From NCBI RefSeq assembly GCF_963921235.1, contig NC_086097.1, positions 127,536,001-127,600,000 on the forward strand: 64,000 nt of DNA, in the 5' to 3' direction. The notes under the pieces are model-generated. The model searched no databases and had not been told where the DNA came from. It saw nothing but the letters and a program-made list of their open reading frames with translations. Numbering within the stretch: position 1 is the first letter of the stretch; each line of letters begins with the position of its first letter. Positions 1,545 to 52,304 of this stretch are shown here, piece by piece. Source of the DNA: Mobula hypostoma (taxonomy: Eukaryota). A program made the position numbers and the translations under genes.

Positions 1545-2177
1545 TTCCTTTTCTAACCAAACAGGAGAAATGTTAGGTACACCCAATACAAGTGGTTTCA
1601 GAATGGGGTACAAAAATCTGGAGCAGGGCTCATCAAAAAGTCACCAAATGAAGAAGAATTGAATTTGTTTAGTATTTCCCGGACATTGTCTTCAGAGTAT
1701 AAGGTCTTGTGAGTTTATTATTGATTGGCTTCATTGTGTCACAGCATATGTAGCCAAAGAGTACAGCACACTTTTCAAGACAGCACACGTAAACAATTAA
1801 CATGTCGAGTCTCTAAGCTGCTGGTGGACACTGAATGGTTCAAACCATTATTTCAATGTTACCTTTCTGCAAATCAGAGGATCCATTTAGCTCTCCTGTA
1901 ACATAGGATTTCAATATACTAAATAGACAGATACAAAAGAAAAAAAATCTATGTCTATGCCTGAAGACACTACACTGCTTATTTTCTCCTTGAACGAACA
2001 GTGAGGTACAAGTAGGTGGGATTAAAGGCAGCATTTATGACTGTACATTTGAACTGTGATTCAGGATGAAAATGGAAATGAATTTCCTCAATCACTGAAT
2101 TTGTAGAACTCACTACCTAAGAGGGCTGTGTATATTCAAAACAGGGTTCAATAGGTTTATAGATATTATAGATATTT

Positions 2178-2378
2178 GGGGTGTATTGGGTGTCAGGGAG
2201 GGGTAGCACCTCTGGTGCGGGAACATGTCGCGTTCTTTTCAAGACGGTTAGTCCAACTTTGGTCCCCACCTGGCACTCAGCTCTCACCTGTGGCTCCCCG
2301 TAGCGGTTTGCATGTGACAGCGGCCACGACCCGGGCAACGGCTTCGACAAACCGGCTAAACCAGGTGAGGGCAGCTGA
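2178..2378 (+). ncRNA. Candidate HDV-like self-cleaving ribozyme
   Basis: Pairings in HDV order: P2 2280-2290/2362-2372, P3 GGC 2292-94/GCC 2323-25, L3 TCC with P1.1 GG 2333-34, P4 hairpin, J4/2 GCTAA (C2356); P1 imperfect. Confidence 0.5.
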
Positions 2379-2738
2379 CGAGTCTCAAACCCTCGGTGAG
2401 ATAGCGTGTTGTCTATCCCAGCTTGTGAAGACAGACTCCGGCGGATTGAGCAGACGAGACCAATGGAAAGTCCAATGATCAAGAAGGCGGTCTCTGCAAG
2501 CATCGTGGAACGTGTAGAGCAGGACAAGACACAGAAGATGTCCTGGTTATCCACTGCACCTAGTCCCATCTCCAGCTGTCTTGACTCTGTCTTGCCACTG
2601 GACCCAGATGGGAATTGGGAAGAGAGAGTGAGGCTGACGCTGCGCAACTCTCCCTCACTTAAATCCAAATCAGGCACTAGTCTGAACACCATCTGGTGTC
2701 GAGGTCCTCATTGATGTCGACAATGGATGAACAACAAC
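2178..2738 (+). mobile_element. Non-autonomous RTE-derived retroelement (RTE 5'UTR-like head, CAA tail)
   Basis: TSD AGATATT (2170-2176 / 2739-2745), (CAA)n tail, no RT; head resembles RTE-clade 5'UTRs; related copy at 51870-52060 (-). Confidence 0.7.
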
Positions 2739-2984: not shown

Positions 2985-5900
2985 GGTTTAAAAAGCAAGC
3001 GGGGCTTGTTGGGACTTGTCTGCGGAGCAGGAGGTTGCTTGGGTTTTTTCGTAACTTAGCAAGGGACAATCAAAAAGCCAAGGTGTAAGCAGAGCGTTCA
3101 TTGTGGGAGTGAGCATGGTTATTGAGTTCACGAATGATATCTAATGATAAAATTAAATGCCCTTGGGAATCAGAACTTCAAGAGTCATTTTCAGATAATC
3201 AATGAAGTAAAATTTTTCATTCGGTTAACAACTCATCTATTTGTGCCCGTCATTCCTTGATACAGTTCAAGGTAGTGCATCGGGCCCATATGTCAAAGGA
3301 TAAACTAGCGCGTATTTTCTCTAATATTAATCCTATTTGTGACAGATGTAAAACTGAGCTGGCCATTTTAACTCATAAGTATTGGTCTTGTATAAAGCTA
3401 GATAACTTTTGGAGAGATGTTTTTAAAACACCATCAAAAGTTTTAGATCTGGATCTACAACCTAATTTGCTTACGGCAATTTTTGGGATTATCCTAACGG
3501 AAGCAGGAAATATTCCTGTTTCTGCTCAACGTATGATAGCCTTTTTGACCTTACTGGCTAGGAGAGCCATTTTATTGAAGTGGAAAGAATCTAATCCACC
3601 TACGGTCTTTTATTGGCTTTCCTCCATTATGTCCTGTTTAAGTTTAGAGAAAATAAGAAGTCGGACATTTGATACATCTTTTAAATTTGAGCAAATATGG
3701 TGACCTATTATCCAATATTTTCATTTAATTTGATTTATTACTCTTTCAATCTTTTTTTTCCGAAGTTTTAGATTTGATCAGAAAGGCTTTTTTTCTTTTT
3801 TGGTCGTATCCTCAAAATGGACTGCCCACTCCCTTTTTTTTTGTTTTTTTATATAGTGTAGTAGTTTTTTTTTCTTTTCATTTAAAACCCAATGTTTTTT
3901 CCTTTCTCTTCATAAACTGGTAAGAGGAGAATTGTCATTTTCATTTTTTCATTAATAATTTTATACTAGTTTAACAATATCTATGATTTTGACAATGTCT
4001 GTCTTAATCTTGGTTTATATTGCTACTGATATATATATTTGAACTAATTCTCTTGATTGTATTTATGCTTTTTTTAAATCAATAAAAAGATTAATAAAGA
4101 AAGAAAGAAGTCTGGAGTCATTTAGTTGATCGTAGAACTTAAATTTACGAAGTTAGAGCCAGAGGTATAACGAGTGTAGGCAGGACAGTAGTTAGACAGT
4201 GGAATACGCCTCTTGTAAAATGTGGGATTGCAGGTTATCTAACAGTCTCCTGGATGACTAAATTTGTAGAAACTGTATCCAACTCCTGGCTGACAAGGCT
4301 AAGGAACTGGAGCTGCAGCTGGATGCACTCAGGACCATCTGAAAACCTCATAGATGAATCTTTTACTGAAGTAGTCACATGCAGAATGCAGGCTTCAGAC
4401 AGTAGACGGGTGACTATCAGGAGAAGTAAGGGGAGTAAGCAGTCAATACAAGTTTCCCTAGTGGCCATTCATCTCAGGAACAAGCGTATCTCTTTGGATA
4501 CTGCTGGGGGAATGACCTATCAGTGCATAGCTGAAGCAATCAGGCCAGTGGCACTGTAGCCAGCTCTGAGACTCAGCAGGGAAGGGTAAAGTCAGGCAGA
4601 GCAATAGTGATAGGAGACTCGATAATTAGGGGGATGGACAGGAGACTATGTTGCCACGAAAGACACAACAGGATGGTGTGTTGACTCCCAGGTGTTAGGG
4701 TCTAGGATGATTCAGAGTCACTGAAGAATATTCTCAAAGGTGAGGGTGAGCATCCAGAGGTCAAGGTGCACATTGGCACCAATGACATAGGTAGAAAGGA
4801 GGAAGAAGAGTTAGAAAAGAGGCAGAAGAACAGGTCTTCCAAGGTGGTCATCTCTGGATTACTTCCAGTGCCACAGGCTAGACAGGGCAGGATTAAGATG
4901 ATAGTGCAGATGAATGAGTGGCTAAGGAACTGGTGCAAGGGGCAGGGTTTCAGGTTCTTGGATCATTGGAATATTTTCTGGGGCAGGGGTGACCTGCACA
5001 AGAGGGATGGGTTGCACCTGAACTAGAGGGAAACCAATATCCTGGGTGGGAGATTCGCTGGTGTTACTCGGGAGGGTTTAAACTAGTTTGGTGGCAGATC
5101 GGGTGGGGGGGGCAGGTGTGGGAACCAGAGCCCCAGGACAGAAGGTGAAGGGAAGGGAAGGAAGGAAGGTGGAGGTTCGGGTCAGGAAAAACAGGTTGGA
5201 GCAAAGCAATTGATGTGATATGCTGGACAGTGTGAAGTTTGTGTATTTTAATGCTTGGAGTATTATGGGTAATGGTGATGAACTTAGAACATGGATCAGT
5301 ATGTGGAACTATGATGTTGTGGCATTACAGAGACTTCTTCAGGAGAGGGACAGAAATGGGTGCTTAATGTCCCAGGGATGTGATATTTTAGAAAAGATAG
5401 AGAGGGAGGTAAAGAGGTTGGTGGGGGTGGGGGAGGAGAGTTGCACTACTAATCAGGGACAATATCACAGCTGCAATCAGAGGGGACATATCGGAAGGAT
5501 CATCCACTGAGTCTTTCTGGGTGGACACAAAAATAGGAAGGGTGCAATCACTCTGATGGGATTGTACTACAGACCCTTCCCCGATAGCAACTGGGACATT
5601 GAGGACCAGGTATGCAGGCGGATTAAGGAAAGGTGTAAAAGCTATCGGGCTGTTGTCATGGGAGAAGTCAGCTTCTCTAATAAAAACTGGGACCCTTTGA
5701 GTGCAAGTGTTTTGGATGGGGCAGGAATTGTTAAGTGCATCCAGGAGGGTATCTTAAAGCAATTTGTAGATAGTCCAGCAAGAGGAGGGTCTGTACTGGA
5801 TCTGGTGTTGGGTAATGAGCCTGGCCAGTGGATGAACAGTTAGGCAACAGTGACCACAACTCCTTATTTTAAGATAGCTGTAGATAACGATAAGTATGGA

Positions 5901-8060
5901 CCTTGCGGGAGAGTATTAAATTGGGGCAGGGCAGGTTACAAGAACATTAGACAGAAAGTAGGGAGAGTTAAACAGCTGCTTTGGGGCAAGTGGAGAGTGT
6001 TTATAGATCAACTGCACAGAGTACAGGATGGATATGTTCCAGGAAGGACAAGGATGCCAAGGTGTGAGAACCTTGGATGTCGAGAAAGGTGATGAATTTC
6101 GTCAAGAAGGAAAAGGAAAAGTACATAAAACTTAGGAAGCAAGAATCAAACAGAGCCCTTGAGGACTATAAAGTAGCCAGAAAAGAACTCAAGAAAGGGC
6201 ATTAGGAAAACCAGGAGGGGCCACAAAAAGTCCTTGACAAATAGGATTAAGGAGAATCCCAAGGCAATTCAGGAGCAAGAAGATAACTAGGGAGAGGGTA
6301 GGACCAGTTTAAGCAAAGCGGGGGAGGGAGAAACATTTGTATGGATGCGAAGGATGTATGTGAGGTCCTTAACAATTACATTACATCAGTATCTACCAAG
6401 GGGAAGAATGAGGAGGATAGGGAGTTCACTGCTGAGCGTATTAATATGCTGGGGCACTTTGGGTCTCCTAAAGAGCATTGAGGCGGATAAGTCTCGAGGA
6501 GCTGATAGGATAAACCTCAGGTTATTGAGAGCGGCAAGAACAGAGATTGCTGGGGCCTTGACCAATATCTCTGTGTCTTCTCTAACCACAGGTGAGGTCC
6601 TGGAGGACTAGTGAGTAGCCAATGTAGTTCTATTATTCAAGAGGAGAACCAGGGATAATCCTGGTAACTATAGTATAGACCAGTCTCACATCAGTGTTAT
6701 GGAAATTACTGGAGAGAATCCTTAGGGATAAGATTTATGGGCATTTGGAAAACCATGGCCTAATTAGGGAGAGTGACCATGGCTTTGTGCAGGGCAAGTC
6801 GGGTCTTACAAACTTGATTGAGTTTTTTGATGAGGTGACAGGGCTGATTGATGAAGGCAGAGCCATGGATGTTGCTTGCATGGATTTTAGTAAGGAATTT
6901 GACAAGATCCCTCATGGGCAGCTCATCTAGAAGATTAAGATGCATGGTATCTGTGGTGAATTGGCATTAGGATTAAGAACTGGCTTGCCCATAGAAGACA
7001 GAGGATAGTGGTTGAAGGGACTTATTCTAGCTGGAGATCTGTGATTAGTGGTGTTCTGCAGGGATCTGTACTGGGACCTCTGCTGTTTGTGATGTGCATA
7101 AATGACCTGAGTGAAAACGAAGATGGGTGGATTAGCAAATTTTCAGATGATACAAATATTGGTGGTGTTGTGGATAGTGTAGAAGAATACAATGGGATAT
7201 AGATCAGTTGTAAATGTGGGTGGAGGAATGACAGAAGGAGTTTAACACATGCAAATGTGAAGAGTTGCACCTTGGTAGATAAAATGCAAAGAGACAGTAC
7301 ACTTTTAAGGTCAAGATCCTTAGCAGTGTGGATGAGCAGGTGGATCACGAGGTCCAAGTCCATAGCTCCCTACAAGTGGCTACACAGGTTGATAGGGTGG
7401 TAACAAGGTGGATGACATGTTTGCTTTGTTAGTCATGGCACTGAATTCAAAAATCAGGTGGTTACGCAGCAGCTTTAGAAACCCTTAGTCAGGCCACATC
7501 TGGAGTATTGCATAGTGTCTGGTCACCCCATTATAGAAAGGATGTCGAGGCTTTGGAGAGGATGCAGAAGATGTTTACCAGGATGTTTCCTGGATTAAAG
7601 GGCATGCGCTGTAACAAGAGGCTGGACAAACTTGGGTTGCTTTCTCTGGCGCGGTGGAGGATGAGTGGAGATCTGATAGAGGTGTGTAAGATTATGAGAG
7701 GCATAGATAGAGTAGACAGACAATATCTTTTTCCAAGTGTTGAAATGTCTAATAACAGAGGGCATGGATTTAAGGTGAGAGGGGGTAATTTTAAAGGAGA
7801 TGTGGGGGGCATATTTTTTTACACAGAAAGTGGTGGGTGCCTGGAAAGTTCTGCCTGGGGTGGTGGTAGAGGCAGATACATTAAAGACTTTCAGGAGACA
7901 TTTAGATAGGCACATGAATGTGAGAAAATAGAAGAATATGTACATTGTGGGGGCAGAAGAGCTTAGTTAGCCGTTGGATTACTAATTTAATTGGTTCTGT
8001 ACAACCAATTGGTGCTGAAGGGCCGGTTCTCATGCTTTAATATTCTATACTCTAAACGTT
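2985..8060 (+). mobile_element. Near full-length decayed CR1 LINE (ORF1 SGNH-esterase-like, ORF2 APE endonuclease + RT), interrupted by an L1/Tx1 fragment
   Basis: ORF1 remnants (IVIGDSII, HIGTNDIG, DGLHLN); endonuclease (YFNAWSI, LDLVL); RT (HGFVQGKS, DFSKEFDK, QGSVLGPLLF, KFSDDT); many stops and frameshifts. Confidence 0.9.
3130..4108 (+). mobile_element. L1/Tx1-clade LINE 3' fragment
   Basis: ORF 3257-3703 is an L1-type ORF2 C-terminal Cys-rich region (IQFKVVHRAH...CDRCK...HKYWSC..FW); T-rich 3'UTR; AATAAA plus (GAAA)n tail. Confidence 0.85.
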
Positions 8061-8253: not shown

Positions 8254-10676
8254 ATAGAAACATAAAAACATAGAAACATAGAAAATAGGTGCAGGAGTAG
8301 GCCATTCAGTCCTTTGAGCCTGCACCGCCATTCAGTATGATCACGGCTGATCATCCAATTCAGAACCCTGTACCTGCTTTCTCTACATACCCCCTGATCC
8401 CTTTAGCCACAAGGGCCATATCTAACACCCTCTTAAATATAGCCAATGAACCGGCCTCAACTGTTTCCTGTGGCAGAGAATTCCACAGATTCACCACTCT
8501 CTGTGTGAAGAAGTTTTTCCTCATCTCGGTCCTAAAAGGCTTCCCCTTTATCCTTAAACTGTGACCCCTCATTCTGGACATCCCCAACATTGGGAACAAT
8601 CTTCCCGCATCTAGTCTGTCCAATCCCTTTAGAATTTTATACATTTCAATAAGATCCTCCCTCAATCTTCTAAATTCCAGCGAGTATAAGGATAGTCGAT
8701 CCAGTCTTTCTTCATATGAAAGTCCTGCCATCCCAGGAATCAATCTGGTGAACCTTCTTTGTACTCCCTCTCTGGCAAGAATATCTTTCCTCAGATTAGG
8801 GGACCAAAACTGCACACAATACTCCAGGTGTGGTCTCACCAAGGCCTTGTACAACTGCAGTAGAACCTCCCTGCTCCTGTACTCGAATCCTCTTGCTATG
8901 AATGCCAACATACCATTCGCCTTTTTCACCGTCTGCTGTACCTGCATGCCCACTTTCAATGGCTGGTATACAATGACACCCAGGTCTCGTTACACCTCCC
9001 CTTTTCCTAATTGGCCACCATTCAGATAATAATCTGTTTTCCTGTTCTTGCCACCAAAGTGGATACGCTCACATTTATCCACATTAAATTGTATCTGCTA
9101 TGAATTTGCCCACTCACCTAACCTATCCAAGTCACCCTGCATCCTCTTAGCATCCTCCTCACAGCTAACACTACCGCCTAGCTTCGTGTCATCTGCAATC
9201 TTGGAGATGCTGCATTTAATTCCCTCGTCTGTCATTAATATATATTGTAAACAACTGGGGTCCCAACACTGAGCCTTGCGGTACCCCACTAGTCACTGCC
9301 TGCCATTCTGAAAAGGTCCCGTTTATTCCCACTCTTTGCTTTCTGTCTGCCAACCAATTCTCTATCCACATCAATACCATACCCCCAATACCGTGTGCTT
9401 TAAGTTTGCATACTAATCTCCTGTGTGGGACCTTGTCAAAAGCCTTTTGAAAATCCAAATATACCACATCCACTGGTTCTCCCCTATCCACTCTACTAGT
9501 TACATCCTCAAAAAATTCTGTAAGATTTGCCAGACATGATTTTCCTTTCACAAATCCATGCTGACTTTGTCTGATGATTTCACTGCTTTCCAAATGTGCT
9601 GTTATCACATCTTTGATAACTGATTCCAGCATTTTCCCCACCACTAATGTCAGACTAACTGGTCTATAATTCCCCAGTTTCTCTCTCCCTCCTTTTTTAA
9701 AAAGTGGGGCTACAGTAGCCACCCTCCAATCCTCAGGAACTAACCCAGAATCTAAAGAGTTTTGAAAAATTATCACTAGTGCATCCACTATTTCTTGGGC
9801 TACTTCCTTAAGCACTCTGGGATGCAGACCATCTGGCCCTGGGGATTTATCTGCCTTTAATCCCTTCAATTTACCTAACACCACTTCCCTACTAATGTGT
9901 ATTTCCCTCAGTTCCTCCATCTCACTAGACCCTCGGTCCCCTACTATTTCCGGAAGATTATTTATGTCCTCCTTAGTGAAGGCAGAACCAAAGTAGTTAT
10001 TCAATTGGTCTGCCATGTCCTTGTTCCCCATGATCAATTCACCTGTTTCTGACTGTAAGGGACCTACATTTGTCTTAACCAATCTTTTTCTTTTCACATA
10101 TCTACAAAAGCTTTTACAGTCAGTTTTTATGTTCCCTGCCAGCTTTCTCTCATAATCTTTTTTCCGTTTCTTAATTAAGCCTTTTGTCCTCCTCTGCTGG
10201 AATCTGAATTTCTCCCAGTCCTCAGGTGTGCCGCTTTTTCTGGCTAATTTGTATGTTTCTTCTTTGGAATTGATACTATCCCTAATTTCCCTTGTCAGCC
10301 ACGGGTGCACTACCTTCCTTGGTTTATTCTTTTGCCAAACTGGGATGAACAACTGTTGTAGTTCATCCATGCGATCTTTAAATGCTGCTGCTGCCTTCCC
10401 CTGATGAGACATCTCCCCCAACAGCATCCAAAACAGTATATCTGTTTAGGAGGGAGATGACCTCAGGGGACTCCTGCACTACCTGCCTACTGCTACGCTG
10501 TCGAGTGGCCACCCATTCCCTTTCTGCCTGTGTAGCCTTTACCTGCGGTGTGGCCAACTCACTGAACATGCTATTCATGACTTTCTCAGCATTGCGGATG
10601 CTCCAGTATGAATCCAATCGCAGCTCCAGCTGCTCAATGTGGTCTGCCAGAAGCTGCAGCTGGACACATCTCCTGC
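8254..10676 (-). mobile_element. Young CR1 LINE with internal deletion (ORF1 piece joined to ORF2 RT)
   Basis: ORFs 9216-10427, 9098-9289, 8360-8959 give RT (YRPVSLT, DFQKAFDKV, PQGSVLGP, IADDTK); ORF1 piece 10378-10617; (TTTCTATG)n tail. Confidence 0.93.
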
Positions 10677-35085: not shown

Positions 35086-36429
35086 TGACATACCTTACTT
35101 CGATTTTTCAGAAGGCCTTTGACAAGGTGCCACAGTGATGCTGCTTAACAAGTTAAAAGCCCATGGTATTATAAGAAAGATGCTTTCATGGATGGATGAT
35201 TGGCTGACTGGCAGACAGGAGGCAAAGAATGGGAATAAAGGGGCCTTTTCTGGTTGGCTTCTGGTGACTAATGGTGTTCCCCAGGGTTCGTCATTGGGAC
35301 CACTTCTTTTCACATTATATGACAGAATTTGTAGTTTCGAGGTCAAATTTGCAAAAATAGGTGGAGGGGCAGGTAGTATTGAGGAAGCAGAGAATCTGCA
35401 GAAGGACGTAGACAGATTGAGAGACTGGTAAAAAAACTGGCAACGGGAATATAGTGTAGGGAAGTGTATGGTCATGTACTTTGGTAGAAGGAATAAAGGT
35501 GTAGATTATTTTCTAAATGGGGAGAAAATTCAAAAAATCAGGAGTGCAAGGGGACTTGAGAGTTCTTGTGGATTCCCTTAAGGTTAACTTGTAGGTTGAG
35601 TCGGTGGTAAGGAAGGCAAATACAATGTTAGCATTCATTTCGAGAGGAATAGAATATAAGAGCAAAGGTATAATGCTGAGTCTTTTAAGGCATTGGTCAG
35701 ACCACACTTCGATTATTGTGAAAAGTTTTGGGCCCCTTATCTAAGAAGGGATGTGCTGCATTGGAGAGGGTTCAGAGGAGGTTAATGAGAATGACTCGAG
35801 GAATGAAAGGGTTAACATGTGAGGAATGTCTGGACCTGTACTTGGCGGAGTTTAGAAGTATGAGGGGCGATGTCATTGAAACCGATTGCATATTGAAAGG
35901 TCTAGATAGAGTGGATGTGGAGAGGATGTTTCCTATAGTGGGTGGGACTAAGACTGGGGATAAAGCCTCAGAATAGTAGGACGTCCCATTAGAACAGAGA
36001 AGAGGAGGAATTTCTTTAGCCAGAGGGTGATGAATTTGTGAAATTCATTGTCACAAGCATCTGTGGAGGCCAAGTCATTGCGTATCGTTGATAGGTTCTT
36101 GATTATTCAGGGTGTCAAAGGTTATGGGGAGAAGGTAGGAGAATGGAGTTGAGAGGGATAATAAATCAACCATGATGGAATAGTGGAGCAGACTCGATGG
36201 GCTGAATGGTCTACTTCTCCTCCTTTGTCTTCTGGTCTTTGATTTTGAATCATACTGACAGGAATACACTGAGAGGATATTTGTAAGTATATTAGCATAG
36301 ACCTCAAAAAATGACCAAACTAAGGGACTTTTTGGTAATGGTCCCAAGCTGCTGTATCCATTCATTTGACGAATGTGTATTTCATTTAATTTTCATTTTC
36401 TGGAAGGTCTACAACAGAGGTGGTAACTG

Positions 36430-49210: not shown

Positions 49211-49358
49211 TAGGTTAGTAGGTTAATTGGTCATTGTAAATTGTCCTGTAATGAGGGTAGTGTTGAATAGGTAGGTTGCTGGGTGGTGAGGCTCATTGGA
49301 CCAGAAGGGCCTGTACCATGCTACCTCTCTAAATAAAAACAAACAAACAAATAAATAA

Positions 49359-51466
49359 GACCATAAGACCATAAGACAAAGGAGCAGAAGTAGGCCATTC
49401 AGCCCATCAAGTCTGCTCCGCCATCTTATCATGAGCTGATCCGTTTTCTCCTATTTAGTCCCACTCCCCCGCTTTCTCACCATAACCTTTGATGCCCTGG
49501 CTACTCAGATACCTATTAATCTCTGCCTTAAATACACCCAATGACTTGGCCTCCACTGCTGCCCGTGGCAACAAATTCCATAGATTCACCACCCTCTGAC
49601 TAAAAAAATTTCTTCGCACTTCTGTTCTGAATGGGCGCCCTTCAATCCTTAAGTCATGCCCTCTCGTACTAGACTCCCCCATCATGGGAAACAACTTTGC
49701 CACATCCACTCTGTCCATGCCTTTTAACATTCGGAATGTTTCTATGAGGTCTCCCCCATCATTCTTCTAAACTCCAAGGAATACAGTCCAAGAGCGGACA
49801 AACATTCCTCATATGTTAACCCTCTCATTCCCGGAATCATTCTAGTGAATCTTCTCTGTATCCTCTCCAATGTCAGCACATCCTTTCTTAAATAAGGAGA
49901 CCAAAACTGCCCACAGTACCTCAAGTGAGGTCTCACCAGCGCCTTATAGAGCCTCAACATCACATCCCTGCTCCTATACTCTATTCCTCTAGAAATGAAT
50001 GCCAACATTGCATTCACCTTCTTCACTACTGACTCAACCTGGAGGTTAACTTTAAGGGTATCCTGTACGAGGACTCCCAAGTCCCATTGCATCTCAGAAC
50101 TTTGAATTCTTTCCCCATTTAAATAATAGTCTGCCCGTTTATTTTCTCTGCCGAAGTGCATAACCATACACTTTCCAACAGTGTACTTCATTTGCCACTT
50201 CTCTGCCCATTCTTCCAATCTATCCAAGTCTCTCTGCAGACTCTCCATTTCCTCAGCACTACCGGCCCCTCCACCTATCTTCGTATCATCAGCAAACTTA
50301 GCCACAAAGCCATCTATTCCATAATCCAAATCGTTGATGTACAATGTAAAAAGAAGTGGCCCCAGCACTGATCCCTGTGGAACACCACTGGTAACCGGCA
50401 GCCAATCAGAATAGGATCCCTTTATTCCCACTCTCTGTTTCCTGCCAATCAGCCAACGCTCTATCCACGTATGTAACTTTCTCGTAATTCCATAGGCTCT
50501 TATCTTGTTAAGTAGCCTCATGTGTGGCACCTTGTCAAAGACCTTCTGAAAATCCAAATATACAACATCCACTGCATCTCCCTTGTCTAGCCTACTGGTA
50601 ATTTCCTCAAAAAATTGTAATAGGTTTGTCAGGCAGGATTTTCCTTTAAGGAATCCATGCTGAGTTCTGCCTATCTTGTCATATGCCTCCAGGCACTCTG
50701 TAACCTCATCCTTGACAATCGACTTCAACAACTTCCCAACCACCGATGTCAAGCTAACAGGTCTATAATTTCCTTTTTGCTTCCTTGCCCTCTTCTTAAA
50801 TAGCGGAGTGACATTTGCAATCTTCCAGTCCTCCGGAACCATGCCAGAATCTATCGACTTTTGCAAGATCATCGCTAATGCCTCCGCAATCTCCACAGCT
50901 ACTTCCTTCAGAACACGAAGGTGCATTCCATCTGGTCCAGGAGATTTATCTACCTTTAGCCTATTCAGCTGCCTGAGTACCTTCTCTGTCGTAATTGTGA
51001 CTGCGCACACTTCTCTTCCCTGCCACCCTTGAGTGTCCGGGATACTGCTGATGTCTTCCTCAGTGAAGACTGATGCAAAATATTCATTCAGTTCCTCTAC
51101 CATCTCCTTATCTCCCATTACAATTTCTCCAGCATCATTTTCTATCGGTCCTATATCTACTCTCACCTGTCCTTTACTCTTTATATACTTGAAAAAGCTT
51201 TTAGTATCCTCTTTGATATTATTTGCTAGCTTCCTTTCATAGTTAATCTTTTCTCTCTTAATGACCTTCTTGGTTTCCTTTTGTAAGGTTTTAAAAACTT
51301 TCCAATCCTCTGTCTTCCCACTAATTTTTGCTTCCTTGTATGCCTTCTCCTTTGCTTTAACTTTGGCTTTGACTTCTCTTGTCAACCACGGTTGCATCTT
51401 TTTTCCACTCGAAAATTTCTTCTTTTTTGGAATATACCTGCCTTGCACATTCCTCATTTCTCGCAT
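49359..51466 (-). mobile_element. Young 5'-truncated CR1 LINE with long open RT frame
   Basis: ORF 49742-51706 has RT motifs (YRPVSLTS, PQGSVLGPLLF, KFADDTK) plus ORF 49455-49730; (TCTTATGG)n tail; TSD AAATAAATAA (49349-49358 / 51467-51476). Confidence 0.95.
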
Positions 51467-51741: not shown

Positions 51742-52304
51742 CAGTGGATTTTTGTTAATTGGTCCATCAGTTAATTGGGGAAGAACAAAAGAAAATAGAC
51801 AGAGTTCCCTTTGTTTATTTGAGACTATGCTGCATAATTGGGACAGAAGACTTTTGTCCACTGGCTAAGGTCATCAGGTTTAGCCTGGCCGTCAAAGTGG
51901 TGTACTGGGGAGAGGCCACTGTCTCACGTGAACAGGTACTTGGAGCCACAGGTGAGAGCTGAGTGTCTGAGGGGGACCAAAAGGTAAGTGTGCTGCCCCA
52001 GAATGGACTGGGAAAGCCCTTTCATCAGAAGTGCTACCCCTCCCTGGACACTCCATACATGGCACCGTACAGCAGCTGAATTCTTTTTGATAACTATTAG
52101 GAACTAATATACAGTTTTATAGAATGGTGGTAGCTTTGGTGTGGTTCTAATTTGTTCTGTATTTCATTTAAATACATACATAATTTGTTATGCAGTTAAA
52201 CTGTAGTTTGTCTTTTTATATGAAGCTTCAGCTACTTGGGGCAGTTGCTTAATTGGGCCAATGTGTATTGGTCCTGACATGTCCCAACGAACTGGAATCC
52301 ACTG
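51742..52304. mobile_element. Tc1/mariner-pogo (Tigger-like) MITE
   Basis: Termini CAGTGGATT / AATCCACTG; TA on left, TG on right; internal taattggg motifs. Confidence 0.6.
51870..52060 (-). mobile_element. RTE 5'UTR-like fragment homologous to 2180-2370, nested in the MITE
   Basis: Reverse complement shares cagggaggggtagcac, cactcagctctcacctgtggctcc and ggctaaacc. Confidence 0.75.

Follow-up and report, generated by a model that had tools for sequence, protein, structure and literature searches.

A predicted HDV-like ribozyme with a hairpin inserted in L3 at the 5' end of a non-autonomous RTE element of Mobula hypostoma

Does a short repeat of the Mobula hypostoma genome begin with an HDV-like ribozyme, and can the L3 loop of such a ribozyme hold an additional hairpin? 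The repeat lies within a stretch of 64,000 nucleotides (contig NC_086097.1, positions 127,536,001 to 127,600,000 of the forward strand), hereafter the window, in which position 1 is the first letter. Self-cleavage of HDV-like ribozymes in non-LTR elements releases the element from a read-through transcript (PMC6765202, PMC5786205, PMC3774820), and an earlier note on this DNA had proposed an atypical ribozyme of this kind at the 5' end of a non-autonomous RTE element. We find it likely that the first 195 nt of the element, in the form of its founder sequence, fold as an HDV-like double pseudoknot that would cut before G2178 and so define where the element begins, with C2356 as the predicted general acid and a predicted hairpin in L3. 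The element and its relative in the window are laid out as follows.

2161..2168, + strand: left copy of the target-site duplication (TSD), 7-8 bp, from the empty-site contig
2169..2177, + strand: nine additional bases at the TSD-to-element junction, repeating target-site sequence, last base T
2178..2738, + strand: bipartite non-autonomous RTE element of family A, ~560 bp, with a CAA repeat at its end
2373..2693, + strand: remainder of the retained RTE 5' UTR, 91% identity with the 5' end of the autonomous copy L150
2694..2738, + strand: RTE 3' end plus CAA tail, matching the end of L150
2739..2746, + strand: right copy of the TSD, from the empty-site contig
51867..52059, - strand: decayed 5' fragment of the older sister family B, same ribozyme head, 49 bits

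The junctions were taken from an empty site. In run X16, one contig passes straight from 2161 to 2740, 7 of its letters fitting on either side, which gives a TSD of 7-8 bp and nine extra bases before G2178; a scripted call for the window copy returned a longer, imperfect TSD, over which the empty site takes precedence. Over nt 3-516 the element shares 91% identity with the 5' end of L150, and its last ~45 bases match the end of L150 more weakly (32 nt at 78%, with an E value of 0.11 alone). The element retains just the two termini (5' and 3') of an autonomous RTE and no reverse transcriptase (RT) coding, and is by its sequence a bipartite non-autonomous RTE derivative; the earlier assignment is thus borne out by a partner that shares both ends. 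The UTR segment resembles RTE-3_AMi/WALLSI1A in a by-eye comparison with the PMC5786205 supplement. Non-CpG divergence from the family majority averages 4.5% over 25 copies and amounts to 4.2% for the window copy.

We considered and rejected a small protein encoded by the retained UTR. An ATG-started frame of 83 codons (window 2463-2714) has no stop in the family majority, where it continues as far as the tail; 41 of 58 copies of family A keep it open, and it is broken in other lineages. The window is also rich in other repeats (4100-8000, 8260-9860, 35100-36240 and 49350-51430), among which long purine-skewed stretches look like decayed LINEs of another clade.

The autonomous partner was identified from 30 fetched pattern-picked loci, a single one of which had a coding continuation. 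Once extended, this locus is L150, an element of 4.1 kb whose single, broken ORF encodes an APE endonuclease and a reverse transcriptase (PF00078; PF03372 is below the curated cut-off, in a frameshifted piece). Homologues of 1,040-1,100 aa with the same domains occur in turtles, frog, carp, lancelet, snail, tapeworms and many metagenomes. This architecture fits RTE: a single ORF with APE endonuclease and RT, about 1,060 aa, and no ORF1. TSDs of 7-15 bp accompany 34 of 42 full-length copies, 27 of them beginning with A, and a CAA-type tail together with a 7-15 bp TSD often starting with A is the RTE pattern (PMC6007223). On sequence grounds, the architecture, CAA tail, TSDs and by-eye UTR likeness to RTE-3_AMi/WALLSI1A place the element in the RTE clade, the tree having been built without named references.

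The repeat family of the window copy comprises 4,311 first-look candidates in the 3.48-Gb genome, and the best 39 other copies are 92-93% identical to the window copy. A ribozyme-core pattern matched the genome 866+864 times and its reversed control 0+0 times, so that at least 1,730 matches to the core are present. Alignments were assembled for family A (72 distinct copies), family B (35 copies) and family C (25 copies), the latter two located by searching with the copy at 51870 and with an outlier. All three families are non-autonomous and have one ribozyme head in common. Family B (L031-L060) is a diverged parallel of family A, and family C (L125-L149) has a different 3' part from about base 400 on; we take the family C head to resemble marsupial WALLSI3/RTESINE2. 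The copy at 51870, which the earlier note had used to support the L3 stem, is real; it is a member of a second, older family, and the end of its P2 3' strand is missing. A genome pattern for other P1' variants gave 228 matches, and the 100 of these that were listed are all decayed copies of A, B or C. Two family-A copies, L106 and L107, lie near each other in opposite orientation, one of them ending at base 516. The head sequence also occurs in four further organisms (L006:1480-1720 compared with runs X10, X11, X12 and X18). In X12 an A follows G25, and in one contig T replaces the G before P3'; hence these two positions are not fixed.

The 5' ends of individual copies coincide with the start of the proposed ribozyme, as had been suggested. 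When 28 family-A copies were picked by the core pattern, irrespective of where they begin, 19 started at +1/+2, 4 at +3 to +9, 1 at +10 and 4 further in; for 29 copies picked by their 3' half the same start classes held 12, 9, 0 and 8. Loose contig ends from two runs start before 2176/2177, with unrelated flanks (0.37-0.49 agreement). Among 34 TSD-bearing full-length copies, the TSD adjoins +1 in 19, and 1-10 extra bases intervene in 15. R2 elements that cut at their own 5' junction likewise show untidy added bases (PMC3774820). The base at -1 is T in 14 of 19 full-length copies, and T ends 13 of the 15 extra-base junctions. U at -1 is the best base for HDV cleavage (PMC1874588), and with T at -1 new copies would receive U at this position.

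The proposed ribozyme occupies the window copy as follows.

2178..2184, + strand: P1 5' strand, paired with P1' in all five lineages; the predicted cut lies 5' of G2178
2188..2278, + strand: J1/2, one long predicted hairpin (P1.2), whose basal 10 bp include the second GGGTGT
2280..2290, + strand: P2 5' strand of an 11 bp helix, with one two-sided change in L201
2292..2294, + strand: P3 5' strand, invariant in five lineages
2295..2302, + strand: canonical part of L3 (U20=2295, C21/C22=2296-97, two free bases, G25=2300)
2303..2321, + strand: predicted inserted L3 hairpin, 5-bp stem and 7-9 nt loop, mismatch G2305 in this copy; absent from L177
2323..2325, + strand: P3 3' strand
2326..2332, + strand: P1 3' strand, with two mutations in this copy (one mismatch and one wobble)
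2333..2338, + strand: P1.1 GG and J1.1/4; GG invariant in five lineages, TCC 2295-97 opposite GG 2333-34
2339..2354, + strand: P4 hairpin, arms 2339-44/2349-54, mismatch A2351 in this copy; two-sided changes among lineages
2355..2361, + strand: J4/2 with putative catalytic C2356 (C75 equivalent); C invariant, next base T/C
2362..2372, + strand: P2 3' strand

All pairings that the earlier note had read in HDV order lie at the coordinates it gave, and its placement of P1.1 and of C2356 in J4/2 likewise stands. The imperfect P1' that it recorded reflects mutations of the window copy. In the majority of family A (72 copies) P1' reads ACACCCC and forms all 7 pairs with the element's first seven bases; the arms of the L3 stem read GCTGT and ACAGC. 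The window copy itself carries mismatches in three helices (P1, the insert and P4), and the distal part of its J1/2 is rearranged; the catalytic positions are intact. This copy is decayed and probably a slower or dead ribozyme, and the reading applies to the family founder sequence.

Rfam gave no match at gathering for the whole window; for 2100-2800, no ribozyme family appeared at E values up to 10. With a folder that excludes pseudoknots, the folding energy of the window copy has z = -0.05 and that of a near-consensus copy z = -1.18, so folding energy alone does not show the fold. Pseudoknot-free folding favours pairing of the P3 5' strand with J4/2, which buries the catalytic C.

The evidence for the fold is comparative. 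Five lineages were used, namely families A, B and C and the metagenome RTEs L173 and L201, whose proteins are 63% and 50% identical to that of L150; family majorities were adjusted for CpG decay. The metagenome protein scan covered the best 80 of 444 confirmed RTE loci. A descriptor permitting a long L3 scored at least 19 in 10 of 71 RTE leaders and in 0 of 71 reverse complements, and three of the ten look like chance matches. A profile and covariance model found the intact insert form in L173 and L201, a degenerate form in L174 and, in ten RTE relatives, a ribozyme with an ordinary 7-8 nt L3 at the corresponding place. As MAFFT placed P1 of L201 and the stem of family C in the wrong register, pairs were tabulated by script for each lineage.

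Across the five lineages P1 keeps 35/35 pairs and shows two-sided changes that arose twice independently, in L201 at pair 1 and in L173 at pair 2; P2 keeps 55/55 with one two-sided change (L201) and one bulge, and P4 keeps 28/30 with two-sided changes at 4 of 6 positions (B, C and L201). P3 keeps 15/15 and is invariant. The covariation proposed as a check is hence two-sided in P1, P2 and P4; P3 and P1.1 carry none, because they never vary. U20, C21, C22, G25, the P1.1 GG and the catalytic C are invariant, whereas neighbouring positions drift: L3 bases 4-5 read CC, AA, AA, CA and UA, and the catalytic C is followed by T or C and then AAA. The double-pseudoknot order P1, P2, P3, P1.1, P4 of HDV-type ribozymes is found, with a P1 of seven pairs (6-7 bp in such ribozymes) that begins with a purine at +1, the predicted cleavage site. 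In a core alignment of 13 distinct natural sequences, the share of paired cells is 96.8%, and both sides differ in 11 of 24 pairs, a count reached by 0 of 500 shuffles and by none of the slid controls, all of which fall below it; this alignment was model-fitted and includes L174, and relatedness inflates its statistic.

Scans elsewhere returned chance matches. The pattern matched 21 stretches in viral contigs and 30 in prokaryote genomes, in both cases chance matches without P2 or J4/2; the model scores of 13 of the viral stretches (near-duplicates omitted) and of all 30 prokaryotic ones reach at best 22.5 bits, against 95-112 for true members. A protein scan of viral contigs gave 22 stretches, none of which was confirmed.

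The fold could have outlived its activity. Here the L3 insertion would have abolished or slowed cutting, the fold being kept as an RTE-protein site, a translation element or part of an internal promoter, and the 5' end would be set by the transcription start or an RT stop. Roles in translation and protein binding have been attributed to HDV-like 5' folds (PMC6765202), and L174, which is 68% identical to L173 over 537 nt, keeps the insert and has lost the J4/2 and L3 consensus, indicating that the module can persist without its catalytic core. A G6A sub-lineage (16 of 53 copies) is uncompensated (A6-C) in 15 of 16, yet propagated, and the T at -1 in 14 of 19 copies could belong to the transcript. 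Against this, the catalytic C, U20, G25 and P1.1 are invariant across proteins that are 50-63% identical, and P1 covaries precisely at the first base of the element; untemplated addition explains the T at -1, which 5 of the 19 copies lack. In solved HDV ribozymes both C75 and G25 are required (PMC13635239). We regard a loss of cutting in the founder sequence as unlikely.

The insert deserves separate treatment. In the predicted fold, L3 reads U, C, C, two free bases, G, U, A, the hairpin and one G, followed by P3'. The insert of 17-19 nt would thus follow the eighth base of the loop, with U20, C21, C22 and G25 (numbering from PMC1874588 and PMC13635239) retained before it. L3 is consequently 26-28 nt long and lies outside the 7-8 nt canonical for HDV-like ribozymes, HDV-family loops having 7 or 8 nt (bioRxiv 10.1101/2022.09.22.508989). 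The hairpin may be tolerated because it sits where these loops differ by one base (7 versus 8 nt). In HDV the last L3 base is extruded and dispensable. The close relative L177 has almost the same P2 and L3 start and no insert. The earlier note had placed a stem within L3; a hairpin is supported by 25/25 retained pairs in the five lineages, is better described as standing behind a canonical loop, and the gcggt arm that the note read is a mutation of this copy.

The inserted stem is nonetheless the weakest part of the predicted fold. Among the five intact lineages its only changes are two A-to-G substitutions that give G-U pairs, its 5' arm being invariant, so that the changes supporting it are one-sided. 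Two two-sided changes in the 13-core alignment come from the degenerate L174 and from one genomic copy, L060, where the change was considered as a subfamily signal and discounted as a singleton. Tested alone against shuffles, the insert is clearly better in one of five lineages and not in the other four (fractions 0.03-0.52). The G just before P3' could pair with U20, in competition with G25. Kissing-loop dimerisation through the insert-loop palindrome, by analogy with CPEB3, is not supported; the palindrome is present in A and L173 and broken in family C.

An active ribozyme could instead close a canonical 8-nt L3 with the proximal GCU, the first three bases of the insert stem, leaving the extra sequence between P3' and P1', or the two registers could alternate as a switch. 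The invariance of the insert 5' arm, with variation confined to the 3' arm, looks as if the former had a second job; the same three bases form P3' in L177, and the pseudoknot-free fold of family B takes the proximal register. Energetically this register is disfavoured by 3-4.5 kcal/mol locally (-1.2 kcal/mol, compared with -4.2 to -5.7 kcal/mol for distal P3 plus insert), and it leaves the conserved 3'-arm complementarity unexplained. Furthermore, P3' would no longer adjoin P1', which lies immediately downstream of it according to PMC3774820, and the proximal triplet of L174 has changed along with its stem partner, a weak point. We judge the proximal register decidedly improbable and proceed with the distal P3 and a hairpin in L3.

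The position of the cut depends on which of two similar strands forms P1. The earlier note had offered GGGTGT at 2188-93 as an alternative to the first strand at 2178-84. Compensatory changes seen in two outside lineages tie P1 to the initial seven bases, so the second GGGTGT is not an alternative P1; it begins the 10-bp basal helix of one predicted J1/2 hairpin, 85-93 nt long, which reaches z -1.3 to -3.4 against shuffles in the five lineages and is joined by linkers of 1-3 nt to P1 and 1 nt to the 11-bp P2. Cutting at the second GGGGTGT (+10), or at both sites, would draw on a repeat that is a perfect P1' partner in families A, B and C; duplicated P1 strands can serve R2 ribozymes (PMC3774820), and 1 of 28 copies begins at +10. 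The repeat is sequestered in the 10-bp P1.2 helix in all five lineages, however, L173 P1' covaries with the first GGGTGT copy alone, and bases 1-9, which a +10 cut would remove, are present in most copies, making such a cut very improbable. That G/C-rich sequence has produced these pairings by chance, for which the lack of an Rfam match and the unremarkable folding z-scores might speak, is hardly credible given compensatory changes in three helices over five lineages, the descriptor scores confined to sense leaders and the low bit scores of the prokaryotic and viral matches.

In the mechanism we propose, the element would have no promoter of its own and would be transcribed by read-through from host DNA. 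The ribozyme would cut 5' of G2178 using C2356 as general acid, releasing a unit-length RNA that the autonomous RTE protein would copy from the CAA tail by target-primed reverse transcription up to the cut end, where a few untemplated or target-derived bases would often be added. The long J1/2 hairpin, the 1-3 nt linkers and the 11-bp P2 would pinch P1 and P2 together, as in drz-Agam-2-1, and the L3 hairpin would stack on P3, pointing away from the active site.

In the tree, the RTE proteins associated with insert-bearing ribozymes do not group as one clade (L173 and L201 versus L176 and L177), and nearer relatives have a canonical L3. Comparison of the lineages suggests that the 5' module was exchanged between RTE lineages or that the insert was lost repeatedly. 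The positional homologue L174:358-444 keeps the L3 insert, P2 and P4 without the J4/2 and L3 consensus; its module may have turned into a plain long hairpin. More speculatively, these RNAs might represent an active HDV-like subclass with a fifth helix out of L3, an exchangeable 5' RTE module in distant animals that Rfam and searches for a 7-8 nt L3 miss. The invariant 5' arm would then double as an alternative P3 partner, and the insert would serve as a folding switch or a protein handle that times cleavage. We hold this extended proposal as tentative.

If these RNAs cut, they would reveal a permissive L3 site next to G25, of use for ribozyme engineering and for wider search descriptors, and many vertebrate RTE/SINE heads thought to be ribozyme-free may have one. 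The present families and L177 form a natural pair with and without the insert, offering a direct test. In the literature searched, whose coverage is incomplete so that a prior description is possible, we found neither an L3 insertion in an HDV-like ribozyme nor the printed core motifs. Natural add-ons in the available descriptions of HDV-like ribozymes lie in J1/2 and P4, and L3 builds the active site. Relative to described ribozymes, and within that coverage, the position of the predicted L3 insertion would make this a new variant; a ribozyme role at RTE 5' ends is already known.

Several known systems bear comparison. The HDV ribozymes, both genomic and antigenomic, and CPEB3 (10.1101/2022.09.22.508989, PMC13635239, PMC1874588) share the P1-P1.1-P4 and P2-P3 order, two C-G pairs in P1.1 and the U20, G25 and C75 equivalents, and the J1.1/4 linker is as in the genomic HDV ribozyme; their L3 has 7 or 8 nt, whereas in the present case the eighth base is followed by a hairpin and a single G. 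drz-Agam-2-1 of Anopheles gambiae (Webb et al. 2016, PMC4908430) likewise has a long structured J1/2 closed by P1.2, short linkers and an extended P2 (12 bp versus 11 here), a combination of features that speeds its cleavage; the available portion of that report puts its peripheral domains in J1/2 and mentions no L3 insertion. R2 ribozymes (PMC3774820) also sit at the first base of the element with P1' directly behind P3, have variable 5' junctions with added bases and occur on non-autonomous derivatives; they differ in a conserved 15-nt P1.1/P3/L3 block, compared with the 26-28 nt L3 of the window family. The bipartite non-autonomous RTEs of Kojima 2018 (PMC5786205) retain their true 5' end and may include a ribozyme, the structure of which is not given in the portion available; three ribozyme-core motifs had no matches in the supplement. 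WALLSI3, RTESINE1/2, MAR4_MD and RTE-N1/N2_Lch nevertheless share the organisation described here, a 5' UTR fused by internal deletion to a ~45-nt 3' end, and, as in the window element, these bipartite RTEs have a CAA tail and a UTR segment like those of RTE-3_AMi and WALLSI1A.
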